Shown: piece after piece, positions 1-5,974 of the stretch | Numbering within the stretch: position 1 is the first letter of the stretch | Layout of the letters: each line of letters opens with the position of its first letter | Virus record (IMG/VR): IMGVR_UViG_3300029461_000057 | DNA: 5,974 nt | Direction: 5' to 3' (one strand) | Source of the DNA: a virus | Lineage: Duplodnaviria; Heunggongvirae; Uroviricota; Caudoviricetes | Made by a program: the position numbers and the translations under genes | Notes under the pieces: generated by a model | What the model was told of the DNA's origin: nothing | Seen by the model: the letters and a program-made list of their open reading frames with translations, nothing else | The model's database searches: none

Positions 1-290
1 CTTTACAGTTAAATCATTTCTTATGCCTTAGTTTCTGATAAAAAAGGTTTTTTTTCACGATTTATAAGTATCAGGTTATGTGAACCGTTCTGAATGTGTA
101 AAAAACGACTGAAAGAAAAGCGGTGGTCCAGACGCCGACAAAAGCACGAACTCGCAAACAAACGCCAAAGTTGGCAATGGCACGCGCTTTTCACGAAAAG
201 AACACCCCGAGATATTGCGTTCGCTGGTGGGAAAACATTCCTGACCCACCTGAAGGCGCAATACATCAGGTTTTAAGCAGAGGAAAGACT

Positions 291-968
291 ATGAATAACA
301 TGACAACGAAAGAGCTTTTGACGGCACTTCCAAAATACAAAAGCCATAAAACAGTTCGCGCCTCAAAAATCAAAGATATCGAAATTATCGCCCTAATGGA
401 TGTGGTCCTTTTTTGCAACATCGAAGTCGTTGAGCCAGAAGGGGTAAAAGTCCATGTTGATAAAATATTTTTGCAAAAACACCGACCAGAAATTGGCGGA
501 TATCTGGTCGCTTATGAGGACGGATCTCTGTCCTATTCACCAGAAAAAACATTTGAAGAAGGCTTTAGTCGGACTAACGACTTCTTCGAAAATGGGGTAT
601 CGCTCAGCATTGAAGGTCACAATGGGGTGACATTCATTACAGCCAGGGACGTAACTATTTCTGCTGGCGGTATCGCTACTCTACAAGAAGAAATCGACCT
701 TGAAGCAGCCGACTTTTCTGACGCGCTGATGTGGCTGAAGGATGGCAAGAAAGTTGCCCGACGCGGGTGGAACGGCGAAAACCAATTCTGCTGGCTGGTT
801 CCTGAAGGACAGTACCCGGCACGAATGGAAGCCATTAAGGGATATTTCCCCGGCGACCTCGTTCCGTATGGTGCTTATTTCGCCTTAAAAAATGCACAAG
901 GTGTAGTTGTTCCGTGGGTTCCTTCTGTAGGCGACTTACTGGCATGTGACTGGTTTGTAGTGGAGTAA
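291..968 (+). CDS. Two-domain hypothetical protein; C-terminal ~80 aa resemble a DUF2829 (Tad2-like) domain, N-terminal ~140 aa unassigned
   Basis: The open frame runs from GTG 123, but ATG 291 is preferred because AGGAAAG (281-287) sits 3-6 nt upstream as a Shine-Dalgarno. Stop TAA at 966-968. C-terminal motifs DALMWLKDGKKVARRGWNG ... PWVPSVGDLLACDWFVV match my recollection of the DUF2829 signature (AL..LK.GKKV.R.GW ... D.LA.DW). Family assignment is from memory, not a search. Confidence 0.75.
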   Translation: MNNMTTKELLTALPKYKSHKTVRASKIKDIEIIALMDVVLFCNIEVVEPEGVKVHVDKIFLQKHRPEIGGYLVAYEDGSLSYSPEKTFEEGFSRTNDFFENGVSLSIEGHNGVTFITARDVTISAGGIATLQEEIDLEAADFSDALMWLKDGKKVARRGWNGENQFCWLVPEGQYPARMEAIKGYFPGDLVPYGAYFALKNAQGVVVPWVPSVGDLLACDWFVVE

Positions 969-974
969 TTTAAC

Positions 975-1757
975 GTGAAAAATACTAAAGCAATTCAATA
1001 CCGCCTGCGTAATGGTCAGAGTGTCGAAGTGACCATCAATAATGATGGTGTGCCTGGCGAAAAGGTTTCGATCTCTGAACTGGCTATCGAAAAAACCATC
1101 ATGTGCCACCTTGGCTTTACTGAAGAAGTGAGCAAAAAGCATGGTGTAGCAATCTGGAGCGCAATGGATACTGGTATGCGCAGATTCATTACTGCTCGTA
1201 CCCCAGGGATGACCATGATGGACCTCATGCAGATTGCGCCGCTGTTTGAATGTGAGCCTTTAGATGTATTCAGCAATCCAGCTATCTGCCAGCAGCTATA
1301 TGGTGAGATGAAACTCGCGGTTACCCCCATTGTGCTGCATGAAGGATCGCTTGCTGGCGTGTGGAAAGTGGAGCGTATTTCAAGCTACATGCCTTTCCAT
1401 GTCAACGGCGTAATCACTGGTGAAAATCAACCTGTTTCCGTTATAAAGTCAGACCTCAAGCGCGCAATTCTTGAAGCAAGTTGTCGAGTTGTCGGCCTGG
1501 GCAAACAGTCTTATGTTTCCTTCCCGGCTGGCCCTGAAGGCCCGGCAGAAATTCTGATTATGGATGCCGATCTGCTCTGGCAAATACAGTTTCTGATTGG
1601 CAAAAGCATCATCCGCGCTGAAGAACTCGATCAGTACATTACCTGCACGATGACGGATGAAGTCAAAAGTGTGGCTATAGCCAATGCCCGGAACCTATGT
1701 CGTGCTGCATTAACAGAACTGCAAGAAAACACCACGGAAGAAGTGGAAAGCGATTAA
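975..1757 (+). CDS. Hypothetical protein (260 aa), no recognisable motif; likely co-transcribed with the upstream gene
   Basis: GTG start at 975 lies 6 nt after the upstream stop, with GGAG (962-965) 9 nt upstream. Uninterrupted 260-codon frame ending TAA 1755-1757, immediately followed by the terminator hairpin. The only antisense ORF (1016..1330) is short and lacks a plausible RBS. Confidence 0.7.
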   Translation: MKNTKAIQYRLRNGQSVEVTINNDGVPGEKVSISELAIEKTIMCHLGFTEEVSKKHGVAIWSAMDTGMRRFITARTPGMTMMDLMQIAPLFECEPLDVFSNPAICQQLYGEMKLAVTPIVLHEGSLAGVWKVERISSYMPFHVNGVITGENQPVSVIKSDLKRAILEASCRVVGLGKQSYVSFPAGPEGPAEILIMDADLLWQIQFLIGKSIIRAEELDQYITCTMTDEVKSVAIANARNLCRAALTELQENTTEEVESD

Positions 1758-1787
1758 AAAAAATCCCGCCGACTGGCGGGATTTCTT
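1756..1787. terminator. Bidirectional rho-independent terminator between convergent operons
   Basis: Perfect 10-bp inverted repeat AAATCCCGCC (1761-1770) / GGCGGGATTT (1775-1784) with 4-nt loop GACT. On the minus-strand transcript the hairpin is followed by an 8-U run (complement of A 1756-1763). On the plus strand it is followed by TTTCTT. It sits exactly between the stop codons at 1755-1757 (+) and 1787-1789 (-). Confidence 0.85.
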
Positions 1788-2098
1788 CAATATACGATCT
1801 GGTCTACATGATCACCAAAATCATCGTCGTCGTCGTCCTCATCGCCACCATCTACTGCTGGCCAATCAACAAACCAGCCAGCGTAAAGATGCAGCGTTCG
1901 GAGAACATCACTTGCGGGAGCATCAAGGGTGTTAACGAATCCCATATAGCTATTGGGATTTGCCCCAGCTATGGCTTCAGCGATCATGTCCTCGGTAATG
2001 TCACCGGAGATAATGCTTAAACGCCCGGAAACTTCTTCATTATCATCAAATTCGATAATGGCATCTCCACCTAATGGCGCTGCGATTTTAATCTGCAT
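1787..2098 (-). CDS. Small highly acidic protein (103 aa) with C-terminal poly-Asp tail; translationally coupled to the upstream large gene
   Basis: ATG at 2096-2098 (minus) is preceded by AAGGAG (complement of 2106-2111) with 7-nt spacing. The start overlaps the last 8 nt of the 995-aa ORF. Stop TGA (1787-1789) abuts the terminator. The protein ends ...DGGDEDDDDDDFGDHVDQIVY. Confidence 0.75.
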   Translation of the reverse strand: MQIKIAAPLGGDAIIEFDDNEEVSGRLSIISGDITEDMIAEAIAGANPNSYMGFVNTLDAPASDVLRTLHLYAGWFVDWPAVDGGDEDDDDDDFGDHVDQIVY

Positions 2099-5075
2099 TA
2101 TTTAGCTCCTTTGCCACACCTAATAACAGTTCCAGCAATCCGTCACCATTCATCAGTGATGCGGCAGCGGCCTCTTTGTCATGATACAACTGAAGAGCCA
2201 TAGAGAATACTTCCGTTGCTGACGTTTTGGAAATAGTCGGTGATTTCTGCCGAATTTTCCCGGTGTTACTTACTGAGGCTGGCGGGTATACCTTCGCCAT
2301 ATAAATATTACTCAATCGAGATCTGAAGCACCATTCAGGCTTGCCACGCCCACCGATATTGACGAAAGATGGCTTATCCCCTTCAACATTGGCCTTCAGG
2401 AATGACCGGGCTTTCTCTAACAAACCAGGGTTACTGTACTCAAGATGATGACCCAGCTCGTGCCACAGTGCACTTGCATTTTCATCGTTCAAATTGACAG
2501 CAACAACACCATTAAGATTTGCATATGCCCTTCCCTGGTGGTGAACTACCTTTGATAAGGTCGATATTTTCCCGCCGGTCAGGCGATAAATATCAGCAAG
2601 TTCCTTGCGCAGGTCTATCCCACCATTCTGTCCAGCGCGGGCTTCTTCCACTTCTTCTGTGATAAAAGAGTCGGCCCACTCAAGAGCTTTTTCTTCAGAT
2701 ACGGATGAGTTTGCGATCGCACTGTTCATGGCAGATAACACTTTCTCGTGGACCGAACCCATACTTCGCTGATTCATTTGCCAGCGTATCTGCGGGTTAT
2801 ATGAGAATCGCTTAAGTAGTTGGTCAAGCTGCTCAAGTTCTTCTTCACTGACATACTTTTTAGCCTCACCAATAATGCCAGGGAGAATATTGCCGTTAGG
2901 ATTAAACGCTCGCGAAAGGAAGAGTTTCAGCGCCCCCATGCCCTCCGATGCTTCAATATCACCAATAACCCGGTTAACAATGGCCGCACTCTTCGGATTA
3001 GCATCCGCCAACGCTCTGGCTACGATTTGCAGGGACGATACGACCTCACGCTGCATATCCGTCCTGATCTCATCAATAAACTCTGGCGTTATGCCGTGCT
3101 CTTTAAGGATATCCCTGCCTTCCGCCGTTACCCCATCGATATCACCGACATGTTTATTAACCCGACTTTGCAATGCCTTAAATGCCTTCAGAATTCCACG
3201 GGCATCATCCGCTTTACTAACGGCCTTCCTGAATGCTGGCAAGAAGTCTGAGTTAACCTCATTTTGTTGATCGGCCCACTGAATGGAGGCTTCTTTCATC
3301 TCGTCCAGAGTCAGATCACCCAACGCGGTATGGTCTGTGAATATGAGCGACAACCTCTGAATCATTTCTGCCAATGGTGATGCCGAATGCGCCGCGCTAA
3401 GGAATGCTTTCACCCTGGTTGGGCGAATGGAAAACCAGTCAATAGCTGGTGGCATATCTCCGTTTTTTATCGCCTGCGCTATCTCATCAAAGCCGTCGCG
3501 CCCAAGGGAGGATGCGTGATTTAACAATCCGCGAAGTAACGAATTGCTGATACCGAATAATCGGCACCATTTATTCACGTCGGCAACAGGCATTCGAACA
3601 AAATGCGCAAGCACTTGTACAAGCTGTTCATCCTGGGGATCTGTACGGGAAAGCAGCCTGATCAGATGAATAATGTCTTTGATGCCGGATGCCCGATGTA
3701 ATAGCAAGCTGGTATATGGAGCAACACCGTTGTAACTACCGCCGGAAACGGACTCGAAAAGACCGCCGGATATCCCTTGCATGCCTTCGTTTTCCAGTTC
3801 CTGAGACACCTGGCGAAGGATATCCTGTAACGACACATCACCACCGCCAAACATATCCCCCAGCGCCTGGCCCTGGTGCTGTAACTCATCATTGATACGT
3901 TGAGCCATCAATTTAAAGGCGGTGGCCATACGCTTCGCGCTACGGTTATTCGCGACGATGAACAACGCGAGTGCTTTCACTTCCGGGGCCGTTTCGCTGA
4001 ACATATCCCCCTGAGCAATAACATCGGTAATATGCTGGCCTGACTCCTTCGATTGCCTTACCAGGTCTACCGCATCTTTCAATGCCGCCAGCGCCTTTTT
4101 ATCGAGGCTATCCGCTGTCTCAATGCCATCAACAATAGTTGTCACAGCCTGCTTGTGCGCTTCTCCTGATAAAGCCTGCATCTGGACAAAATCATTGGCT
4201 GCCGCATTAAGCGCCGTCAGAACATTACGCATATCCGGATCAGGTTCTTCTGCAACCATCCTTACCAGGCGCGCATCCTTATATGCCTTGGCAAAGATCG
4301 CGTTTTGTATACGGTCTACAAGTTGCCGTGTTGGTCGCCCATCTTCAGTTACAAGGCCAGCCGCCTGTGTGGCACCAACTTGCGTCATAAATCCGCGAAT
4401 AAACGCGTCATTACTGCGGCTAAGCAGATCTCCACTTTCTGACGGGTTAAACAACGCCATCATCGCCGGTGTTATGCTGTCGGCATCAACAAAAGCCTTT
4501 TCACTGGCTGCCATTTCCTGGAGATCAGAAATATTTGAGTCCTTGGCAAACTGAACACGGTCAACCTTAGTTAACCGGCGGCGCACCAGTACCGGAGCCG
4601 TCATTGATTCAACCTTTTCAGGAGGTATGCCGAATTCGGTCGCATGTTCAATCAGGTACTCACGATACCGATCCGCATTGCCGTCCTGATAGGCTTTGAT
4701 GATCCCCATGGTCCGTCCATTACCTGACTCAACGGCATTGTCCTCACCAATTATCGGCGCGCCATGGCTGGATAAACCGGAATCAGTAAGCTGAGCAGGC
4801 CGCAAATCTTTGGATATCTGGTTAACCTGAAGAAGGCTGGATGCGCGGGTCCGGTCGCGCGGTTGAAGTTCCTGGGGATAGTCAGGATTAATTTTCCCAT
4901 CCAGAGTATTGGATACCAAAAGAGCTGAGGCATCGACGATATCAAACGCTGTTTTTACCTCGTCTCCCTTCGCTGTCACCACATACGAAACCCGCCCATA
5001 ATCGGGCAGGTTCTTTAGCAGCTCGATCAGCGTTTCTATGCTGGTGGCCATTACCACCTGATCGCTTAAGCTCAT
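2088..5075 (-). CDS. Large multidomain protein (995 aa): N-terminal ParB/sulfiredoxin-like region plus C-terminal HExxH zincin-like metallopeptidase motif; polyvalent-protein-like architecture
   Basis: Single uninterrupted 2988-nt frame with coding-like composition; every overlapping opposite-strand ORF is under 150 aa. Residues ~60-130 read INPDYPQELQPRDRTRASS ... GAPIIGEDNAVESGNGRTMGIIKAY, which parallels the ParB N-domain pattern (P.QPR ... PI.V ... GERR.RA). HELGHH is encoded at 2445-2462 (minus) in the context NASALWHELGHHLEY. The start is ATG 5073-5075, with Met9 at 5049-5051 as an alternative; neither has a strong SD. Confidence 0.9.
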   Translation of the reverse strand: MSLSDQVVMATSIETLIELLKNLPDYGRVSYVVTAKGDEVKTAFDIVDASALLVSNTLDGKINPDYPQELQPRDRTRASSLLQVNQISKDLRPAQLTDSGLSSHGAPIIGEDNAVESGNGRTMGIIKAYQDGNADRYREYLIEHATEFGIPPEKVESMTAPVLVRRRLTKVDRVQFAKDSNISDLQEMAASEKAFVDADSITPAMMALFNPSESGDLLSRSNDAFIRGFMTQVGATQAAGLVTEDGRPTRQLVDRIQNAIFAKAYKDARLVRMVAEEPDPDMRNVLTALNAAANDFVQMQALSGEAHKQAVTTIVDGIETADSLDKKALAALKDAVDLVRQSKESGQHITDVIAQGDMFSETAPEVKALALFIVANNRSAKRMATAFKLMAQRINDELQHQGQALGDMFGGGDVSLQDILRQVSQELENEGMQGISGGLFESVSGGSYNGVAPYTSLLLHRASGIKDIIHLIRLLSRTDPQDEQLVQVLAHFVRMPVADVNKWCRLFGISNSLLRGLLNHASSLGRDGFDEIAQAIKNGDMPPAIDWFSIRPTRVKAFLSAAHSASPLAEMIQRLSLIFTDHTALGDLTLDEMKEASIQWADQQNEVNSDFLPAFRKAVSKADDARGILKAFKALQSRVNKHVGDIDGVTAEGRDILKEHGITPEFIDEIRTDMQREVVSSLQIVARALADANPKSAAIVNRVIGDIEASEGMGALKLFLSRAFNPNGNILPGIIGEAKKYVSEEELEQLDQLLKRFSYNPQIRWQMNQRSMGSVHEKVLSAMNSAIANSSVSEEKALEWADSFITEEVEEARAGQNGGIDLRKELADIYRLTGGKISTLSKVVHHQGRAYANLNGVVAVNLNDENASALWHELGHHLEYSNPGLLEKARSFLKANVEGDKPSFVNIGGRGKPEWCFRSRLSNIYMAKVYPPASVSNTGKIRQKSPTISKTSATEVFSMALQLYHDKEAAAASLMNGDGLLELLLGVAKELNNAD

Positions 5076-5102
5076 CCCTGTTACGCCTTATCCAATGTGC
5101 CG

Positions 5103-5126
5103 CCCCCTACGCTCCTCATAGTGGGG
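5103..5126 (+). other. Candidate imperfect hairpin (7-bp stem with one bulged T, 9-nt loop); possible IS200/IS605 left-end subterminal hairpin
   Basis: CCCCCTA (5103-5109) pairs with TAG(T)GGGG (5119-5126) if T5122 is extrahelical; loop CGCTCCTCA. It lies ~50 nt upstream of the tnpB start, where left-end hairpins of this IS family sit. Weak, judged by eye. Confidence 0.25.
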
Positions 5127-5174
5127 ATATAAGGCACAGTTTTCCTCCCGGCTATTTTTGCTTAAAATAGTGAC

Positions 5175-5974
5175 ATGAAACAACAGGTGTCATTCAAATT
5201 CCGGTTAAAACCAGATGGTCAACAGGAGCGTCAAATGAGGCGCTTTGCCGGAGCTTGTCGTTTCGTTTTCAACCGTGCTCTGGCGCTTCAGAATGAGAAT
5301 CATGAGGCCGGTAAAAAATACATCCCTTACACGAAAATGGCTTCCTGGTTGGTTGAGTGGAAAAAAGACACTGAAACCGAATGGCTTAAAGATTCTCCCT
5401 CACAGCCATTGCAACAGTCACTGAAAGACCTTGAGCGGGCTTACAAAAACTTCTTCCAGAATCGGGCAGCTTTTCCCCGATTCAAAAAGCGGGGACAGAA
5501 TGATGCATTCCGCTACCCGCAGGGTGTTAAGCTCGATCAGGAAAACAGCCGTATTTTTCTGCCGAAACTTGGCTGGATGCGCTACCGGAATAGCCGTCAG
5601 GTCACGGGTATTGTGAAAAATGTTACTGTCAGCCAGTCCTGCGGTAAGTGGTACATCAGTATTCAGACAGAAAGAGAGGTATCCACTCCTGTTCACCCTT
5701 CAGCATCAATGGTCGGACTGGATGCTGGCGTGGCTAAACTCGCCACGCTGTCAGATGGCACAGTCTTTGAACCTGTAAATAGTTTTCAGAAAAACCAGAA
5801 GAAGCTGGCGAGACTTCAGCGACAGTTAAGCCGCAAGGTCAAATTCAGCAACAACTGGCAGAAGCAGAAACGCAAAATACAGCGACTGCATTCCCGTATC
5901 GCAAATATCCGCAGGGACTACCTTCACAAAGTCACAACGACCGTCAGCAAAAACCACGCAATGATTGTCATTGA
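5175..5974 (+). CDS. tnpB: IS200/IS605-family TnpB (RNA-guided endonuclease / OrfB), 5' portion; continues past the window end
   Basis: ATG at 5175-5177 opens a frame that runs to the window edge (266 codons, no stop). Translation MKQQVSFKFRLKPDGQQERQMRRFAGACRFVFNRAL ... MVGLDAGVAKLATLSDG is typical of the TnpB N-terminal region, and GLDAG (5715-5729) is the RuvC-I motif with the catalytic Asp. It is missing from the supplied ORF track only because it has no stop inside the window. Confidence 0.9.
   Translation, partial: MKQQVSFKFRLKPDGQQERQMRRFAGACRFVFNRALALQNENHEAGKKYIPYTKMASWLVEWKKDTETEWLKDSPSQPLQQSLKDLERAYKNFFQNRAAFPRFKKRGQNDAFRYPQGVKLDQENSRIFLPKLGWMRYRNSRQVTGIVKNVTVSQSCGKWYISIQTEREVSTPVHPSASMVGLDAGVAKLATLSDGTVFEPVNSFQKNQKKLARLQRQLSRKVKFSNNWQKQKRKIQRLHSRIANIRRDYLHKVTTTVSKNHAMIVI

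Follow-up and report, generated by a model that had tools for sequence, protein, structure and literature searches.

In IS608 of Helicobacter pylori, a short guide sequence pairs with the cleavage site, TTAC being matched by AAAG (He et al. 2011, PMC3201880). For IS609, the cleavage sites are TTAT on the left and TCAA on the right; IS609 and IS609-like insertions of ~1340 bp are known in P1-like plasmids, and the P1-like plasmid pSvP1 has been described as carrying an "IS609-like sequence" of 1338 bp within its P7-like region (PMC6906374). In the TnpB mechanism, the guide of the omega-RNA is the 3' flank (Karvelis et al. 2021, PMC8612924; Meers et al., 10.1101/2023.03.14.532601). Here, we analyzed a stretch of viral DNA of 5,974 nt (the window), in which a first reading of the sequence alone had proposed an IS200/IS605 left end (LE) at 5076–5174 (the original prediction). 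That proposal was borne out by empty sites and by alignment of the LE to IS609-type relatives. The best explanation, to which we assign a probability of about 0.9 as a whole, is an IS609-like, tnpB-only LE lying after TTAT, with one insertion, vertical inheritance and degenerate ends. Window 5092–5974 is the left part of a 1335-bp non-autonomous IS609-like IS200/IS605 element with tnpB only, which would have entered in a single event of single-strand "peel-and-paste" transposition directly 3' of a TTAT overlapping the ddrA stop codon, and would since have been inherited vertically in the P1-like phage-plasmid lineage. The element type, the target and the presence in P1-like plasmids are already described, and the finding is ordinary in this respect. 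What is mildly new is that guide and target covary naturally across the IS609 family and that both ends of the present copy appear to be disabled.

Database matches identified the window as a segment of a P1-like phage-plasmid. Salmonella phage SJ46 matched window 85–5974 with 99.0% identity, and further matches were found in Escherichia phage RCS47 and in many E. coli and Salmonella plasmids of ~95–100 kb. The element lies between the anti-restriction genes ddrA and ddrB (Table 1). The first 16 nt of the interval 5076–5174 are P1 DNA, followed by the stem-loop of the element's LE and then by a short leader to the tnpB ATG at 5175. Farther away, window 123–1757, upstream of hxr and ddrB, departs from P1: P1's IS1 and isaB are absent, and the stretch holds a 281-aa ORF (a DUF2829-domain protein by annotation in related plasmids) and an isaA-like 260-aa ORF. 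This stretch falls in a known variable region of P1-like elements (PMC6906374). A 143-aa ORF at 4123–4554 (+) lies on the opposite strand within ddrB, at the position of P1 iddB.

Table 1. Coordinates of the genes, target and left-end features in the window.
Feature	Position	Strand	Remarks
ddrB	2088..5075	-	995 aa; the "large gene" of the original prediction; P1 dar anti-restriction operon; Pfam ddrB-ParB
TTAC, unused	5081..5084	+	P1 flank between ddrB start and ddrA stop; unchanged in empty sites, 7 nt left of the junction
TTAT target / left cleavage-site tetranucleotide (CL)	5088..5091	+	P1 DNA, outside the element; from empty sites and 23 relatives
Non-coding LE of the 1335-bp IS609-like element, 83 nt	5092..5174	+	Filled/empty comparison; aligns to LEs of K-12 IS609 and relatives
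Two-tier LE stem-loop	5096..5138	+	Outer stem TGTGCC (5096-5101) / GGCACA (5133-5138) around inner hairpin
Left guide tetranucleotide (GL) position	5099..5102	+	GCCG here; AAAA or AAAG in relatives
Bulged-T hairpin, degenerate remnant of the subterminal hairpin (IPL)	5103..5126	+	CCCC/GGGG base alone conserved
Second small hairpin GCTATTTT TGCTT AAAATAGT	5151..5171	+	Just upstream of tnpB ATG; also in other tnpA-less relatives
tnpB (insQ)	5175..5974	+	Codons 1-266 of 402; runs past the window edge; RefSeq InsQ/TnpB RNA-guided endonuclease

The boundary of the element was read by comparing filled with empty sites. Phage P1 is without the tnpB element and matches the window up to 5091. With a caret marking the junction, the empty site reads ...CTCATCCGTGTTACGCCTTAT^GCTGCCTCTTTAATG in P1 and ...CCCTGTTACGCCTTAT^GCTGCCTC in plasmid L033, whose left flank is 100% identical. 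Both have the core CCTTAT^GCTGCC and carry GTTACGCCTTAT before the junction, with GCTGCCTC after it in L033. The filled site of SJ46 and pSA186_4 reads ...CCTTAT^CCAATGTGCC...GGAGGATGTCAC^GCTGCCTC, with the core CCTTAT^CCAATG...GATGTCAC^GCTGCC and the right edge GTCAC^GCTGCC; the sequence of pSA186_4 is identical to window 4900–5974 and was used to read the element beyond the window. Filled and empty sites differ by an insert of 1335 bp, with zero target duplication. A PLSDB search with window 5060–5180 returned 692 matching records. The filled site is carried by the 75 that cover 80% or more of the query, and among the matches listed, all IS-free P1-like records (~30) aligned to 5060–5091, ending at 5091 or 5090. 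Because the empty-site alleles break exactly after TTAT, the target is TTAT and the left boundary of the element is 5091/5092, with C5092 as its first base. The original prediction had named 5084/5085 and 5091/5092 as the junctions that an empty site should show, and the empty sites agree with the latter. Its placement of the boundary within ~10 bp of the start codon of the large gene was too close, as the ddrB ATG lies 16 nt away. Insertion directly 3' of a specific tetra- or pentanucleotide without duplication, as in the IS200/IS605 family, was thus observed here. For annotation, the value lies in the exact left boundary and TTAT target of an IS609-like element with tnpB only, which P1-like phage-plasmids commonly carry. 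TTAT 5088–5091 would also be the target-adjacent motif (TAM) of the element's TnpB.

The insertion point falls within the last sense codon of ddrA, and TTA 5088–5090 is the former TAA stop codon of that gene on the minus strand. The end of ddrA on this strand reads GCA TAA in the empty site vs GCG TGA in the filled site (right junction at 2724–2729 of the window-type record L032). Since the terminal TCA of the element supplies the new stop, ddrA retains exactly 121 codons. Neither ddrA nor ddrB is therefore disrupted by the insertion.

The full TnpB, read from the identical record, contains OrfB_IS605 (PF01385, 2e-32), Cas12f1-like_TNB (PF07282, 2e-24) and HTH_OrfB_IS605 (PF12323, 7e-16), and it matches the ISDra2 TnpB structures 8bf8 and 8exa (E = 9e-52). 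Hence, the accessory TnpB of IS200/IS605 elements is present by both Pfam domains and PDB hits. In contrast to the TTGAT TAM of ISDra2, the TAM predicted for the P1-borne element is TTAT. The gene is intact (402 aa) and encodes the Cys-rich motifs CACCGH and CQVCG, as well as GLDAG, IEDL and NADVNGA, which we take to hold the RuvC acidic residues from the motifs themselves and not from an alignment to ISDra2. Between two P1-lineage alleles of tnpB, pN/pS was 0.20, and the gene is under purifying selection. No tnpA ORF for a TnpA (Y1 HUH transposase) was found in the 83 nt from the LE to tnpB, and none is annotated in the identical records. The P1-borne copy is non-autonomous, with a tnpB-only organization.

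The right end (RE) lies outside the window. In pSA186_4 the element finishes 43 nt after the tnpB stop, in accordance with the expectation that a matching right end should lie just past that stop. The RE hairpin, read in L032, is CCACGCCC TTCG GGGCGTGG. In relatives, the RE has the form GG(A/G)AT-hairpin-AGGATG-TCAA^ (15/15), with cleavage 10 nt from the hairpin foot. The P1-borne copy keeps the 10-nt spacing (AGGATG plus 4 nt), and its tetranucleotide is TCAC (L032 2685–2727, L002 10300–10342) vs TCAA in 15/15 relatives. The element starts with CCAATGTG... and finishes with ...GGATGTCAC, which are not inverted repeats. Together with the subterminal hairpins, of which the inner one of the LE is degenerate, this is the arrangement of the IS200/IS605 family.

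One of the closest described elements is IS609 of E. coli K-12 (insQ/tnpB at ydcM): tnpB has 94.2% nucleotide identity to K-12 insQ, with 402 aa in both. By ISfinder convention, isoforms share ~90% DNA identity or more. The name IS609 is used here following RefSeq/GenBank annotation and PMC6906374. The K-12 element starts with TTTAT^CCGGTGCGCCGTAAAACCCCATCCTTCAGGGCGGGGATATAAGGCGCGGTTTTCC and finishes with ...GGGATCCACGTCCTTCAGGGCGTGGAGGATGTCAA^. Common to it and the P1-borne copy are the LE's first 11 nt, its outer stem and a GGGGATATAAGGC block (GGGGATATAAGGC.C.GTTTTCC in the window), as well as the RE architecture and the target TTAT. The two differ in that K-12 IS609 has a divergent tnpA pseudogene beside insQ, whereas the P1-borne copy is without tnpA; in that the AAAA guide and the hairpin CCCC(A/G)TCC TTCA GGGCGGGG are replaced in the P1-borne copy; and in the RE tetranucleotide, TCAA vs TCAC. 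Organization as in the P1-borne copy, with an LE of ~85–110 nt followed directly by tnpB and the common leader TTTTTG(C/T)TTAAAATAG...ATG, was found in IS609 derivatives without tnpA on plasmids of E. coli and Salmonella (e.g., L004, L028–L031). These derivatives keep the guide and the canonical hairpin and occupy several different TTAT or TTAC sites; neither holds for the P1-borne copy. IS608 is similar in its insertion 3' of a tetranucleotide without duplication, in its subterminal hairpins at both ends, and in a right cleavage site 10 nt 3' of the hairpin foot, with the RE guide GAAT (PMC3201880). The DNA sequences of IS608 and IS609 are, however, unrelated; IS609 has tnpA divergent from tnpB, and from CL to the hairpin foot IS608 has 19 nt, the IS609 family 16 nt and the window 11 nt.

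Relatives of the left end were collected by a pattern scan with one genome per species, which yielded 21 further left ends from Erwinia, Serratia, Xenorhabdus, Pantoea, Yersinia, Enterobacter and other genera. Six more tnpA-less copies came from E. coli plasmids, at different sites. A Clostridia MAG contig (L019) matched the 23-nt search pattern, had no LE homology and was discarded as a chance hit. The canonical LE consists of an 8-bp inner hairpin, CCCCGTCC TTCA GGGCGGGG, with no bulge, an internal loop and a 6-bp outer stem. In 23 independent relatives, the flanking tetranucleotide covaried with the four nucleotides that directly precede the hairpin foot: TTAT occurred with AAAA in 18/18 and TTAC with AAAG in 5/5 (Fisher p = 3e-5). 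The relatives that use TTAC have CC.GTG directly after it in addition to the AAAG guide. As judged from these alignments, the covariation is the guide/cleavage-site rule of IS608, which also holds in the relatives of the P1-borne element and is visible here as natural covariation among enterobacterial IS609 relatives. The LE structure was likewise conserved, and it extends beyond the hairpin of the original prediction. Over the 23 sequences the outer helix was 98.6% paired, with a compensatory change of C-G to T-A in 6; compensatory changes were present in both helices, the 8-bp hairpin included. For the whole LE structure, 94% of the cells in the 23-sequence alignment were paired vs at most 49% in slid controls. 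In working relatives the LE has the layout of IS608: TnpA binds the 8-bp hairpin, and the four-base guide pairs with the flanking tetranucleotide and so directs cleavage.

Two unusual forms were seen among the relatives. In L006 (4813–4864, minus strand), L010 and L021, the internal-loop GTAAAA, which has the guide inside it, is changed to TTATAT, and the LE is a perfect 20-bp palindrome (-23.6 kcal/mol, z -9.1). These three copies are flanked by TTAC, TTAT and TTAC, respectively, so that the guide rule is unreadable from them. Candidatus Phlomobacter fragariae (L027) carries a mini-element of ~50 nt, in which the 5' half of an LE, AAAA guide included, is joined through a single hairpin to the 3' tail of an RE: TTAT^CAGGTGCGCCG TAAAA CCAAGGTC TTCA AGGCGTGG AGGATG TCAA^. 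This has the appearance of a non-autonomous derivative of minimal size, and a palindromic RE-like pair lies near it.

At its left end, the P1-borne copy deviates from this canonical form. Both its LE and its RE can be aligned with K-12 IS609 and at least 20 enterobacterial relatives. Positions 5092–5102 and 5123–5145 align with the conserved LEs of IS609-type elements from many enterobacteria, and within the stem-loop the outer stem and the CCCC/GGGG base are the only conserved parts. At the guide position the window has GCCG and SJ46 has CGCT, neither of which pairs with the flanking tetranucleotide. The canonical 8-bp inner hairpin is absent; in its place stands CCCCCTA...TAG(T)GGGG, in which only the conserved 3' GGGG is reused, and the gap from TTAT to the hairpin foot is 11 nt vs 16 nt in relatives. 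In this inner hairpin, CCCCCTA (5103–5109) pairs with TAG-GGGG (5119–5121, 5123–5126), leaving T5122 unpaired and a 9-nt loop. The LE hairpin does not resemble the element's own RE hairpin, which has an 8-bp stem and a 4-nt loop vs the 9-nt loop of the LE, while the LE and RE hairpins of K-12 IS609 are near-identical. Three alleles of the hairpin exist in the P1 lineage, differing at 5104, 5108 and 5113, and none restores a guide. The original prediction was correct in that TTAC, TTAT and an imperfect hairpin with a bulged T at 5103–5126 are present, but this is no faithful IS608-type TnpA-binding hairpin: the 8-bp stem, the TTCA loop and the guide are lost. The extrahelical T of the window is not homologous to that of IS608, and the likeness is coincidental.

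Folding gave little support to the hairpin by itself. When the 30-mer 5100–5129 is folded in isolation, it is the structure of lowest energy, at -3.3 kcal/mol and z = -0.42, and 69 of 200 shuffles folded as well. Alternative registers were about equal; in a 92-nt context the minimum-energy fold bulges T5108 instead and adds the outer stem. Whether folded as DNA or RNA, and on both strands, the hairpin with its surroundings did not exceed shuffles in stability. For the whole stem-loop of the window we obtained -6.9 kcal/mol (z -1.15), as compared to -13.6, -14.1 and -23.6 kcal/mol in the relatives L016, L004 and L006, respectively, and -10.5 (z -1.03) in K-12 IS609. The SJ46 allele has a clean 7-bp stem (-11.2 kcal/mol, z -3.4). 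Tetranucleotides of the TTAC/TTAT type occur by chance about every 256 bases. The sequence features of the window are not by themselves above chance, and it is the comparison that carries the case. The weak fold of the hairpin, the alternative registers and the loss of the family consensus hairpin would all fit a chance inverted repeat at 5103–5126 with no meaning of its own, a reading that concerns the hairpin and not the LE assignment. We consider it possible but doubtful: the hairpin occupies the exact position of the family's IPL and reuses the conserved 3' GGGG, which argues for a remnant and not a coincidence.

Alternatively, the stem-loop might act mainly in transcription, either as an insulator or terminator against outside transcription running into tnpB or as a weakened minus-strand terminator of the tnpA type that lets dar-operon transcription into ddrB, its divergence having been selected. 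The plus strand does present a stem followed by GTTTTCC. In canonical relatives, a GC-rich hairpin and TTTTAC come right after the tnpA stop on the minus strand, and both hairpin and T-run are lost here. Within the dar operon, ddrB is located downstream of the element. Against this, the T-runs are just four bases long, and a consensus promoter/terminator scan of 4900–5400 found zero terminators. The same scan gave two promoter-like sites, 4973–5002 (+) and 5193–5164 (-), although such scans carry little weight. A search of Rfam gave nothing in the LE region, its single hit being a chance-level Moco-II at 4950–4995. We regard a mainly transcriptional role as improbable; as far as the sequence allows a judgment, it would in any case be compatible with the best explanation and would not replace it. 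As a separate observation on the leader, TAAAAT at 5163–5168, unflagged by the promoter scan, would put the transcription start at or near the ATG at 5175. No obvious Shine-Dalgarno sequence precedes this ATG, and the tnpB mRNA might be leaderless.

Both ends of the P1-borne copy deviate at cleavage-related bases, since the guide is lost from the LE and the RE has TCAC. Under the preferred reading of a copy with degenerate ends, the missing guide, the rewritten inner hairpin and the TCAC terminus would together have abolished excision by TnpA, and because of these three changes the copy is probably no longer excisable. The distribution of the element was examined in this context. Wherever the flank was read, the window-type LE had the same ddrB flank: in SJ46, in pSA186_4, in four other plasmids and in 12/12 IMG/VR contigs. 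No second site for it was found in E. coli complete genomes, PLSDB or IMG/VR. The near-full-length matches from the searches of E. coli genomes and plasmids were all on plasmids of P1-like size. The canonical tnpA-less relatives, by contrast, occupy several different sites. A single observed insertion site is, however, also expected of any recent or rare insertion and is no proof of immobility. Moreover, the window-type (L032) and SJ46-type (L002) elements differ at 51 of 1335 positions (3.8%), whereas their flanks differ by ~1%. Such a difference points to exchange with other IS609 copies, or else to an insert that coalesces further back in time. Taken with the purifying selection on tnpB, the 3.8% divergence suggests continuing exchange with active copies and is a poor fit to a simple fossil.

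A copy that is still mobile would have a fully functional variant LE, whose rewritten hairpin is recognized in trans by a cognate TnpA variant. The retained outer stem, CCCC/GGGG base and first 11 nt of the LE, the clean stem of the SJ46 allele and the intact, selected tnpB speak for such an LE. On the other side, an A-rich guide that could pair with TTAT is missing, both ends deviate at bases that are invariant or covary in relatives (23 left ends, 15 right ends), the LE variant has no second site in the three collections searched, and the window's own allele folds weakly. We hold this to be slightly less probable still than the transcriptional role. That the same element instead targeted TTAC 5081–5084, starting at 5085 with the hairpin 18 nt inside, as in IS608 and as the original prediction preferred, has a negligible probability, for although the spacing would be near the 19 nt of IS608 (PMC3201880) and some relatives do use TTAC, this TTAC is ordinary P1 DNA, GTTACGCCTTAT is intact in the empty-site alleles with homology running to 5091, and the CC.GTG start and AAAG guide of TTAC relatives are absent, so that the empty sites rule it out.

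Finally, the possible activity of the P1-borne TnpB was considered. The segment that spans the 3' end of tnpB and the RE has a strong predicted fold (z -4.3), and RAGATH-18 gave a sub-threshold match near the RE of SJ46 (28 bits vs a threshold of 44.9). By analogy with described TnpB systems, the omega-RNA guide would be the flank GCTGCCTCTTTAATGT, with TTAT as the TAM. TTAT plus GCTGCCTCTTTAATGT is exactly the IS-free ddrA/ddrB junction; it is found without mismatch in P1 and in an IS-free plasmid, and many other P1-like plasmids appear to share it. The P1-borne copy hence offers a natural case of a TnpB gene that is apparently uncoupled from transposition, in a phage genome whose IS-free relatives carry the predicted target. 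One could imagine that a P1-like plasmid keeps the stranded IS for its nuclease, with both transposition ends disabled and tnpB under purifying selection: the predicted omega-RNA would be fixed on the ddrA/ddrB junction of IS-free genomes, and the nuclease might serve homing into, or exclusion of, IS-free P1 relatives that co-infect or reside in the same cell, and the rewriting of the LE with loss of the T-run may have been selected for dar transcription into ddrB. We rate this scenario as unlikely, on a par with the transcriptional role of the stem-loop. Sequences similar to tnpB were also seen in other phages. In the filamentous phage If1 (U02303), 266 nt are 97% identical to the part of tnpB at window 5709–5974, and for Morganella phage IME1369_01 the identity is 95.5% across 784 nt (window 5191–5974), in a region annotated as "putative virulence protein".
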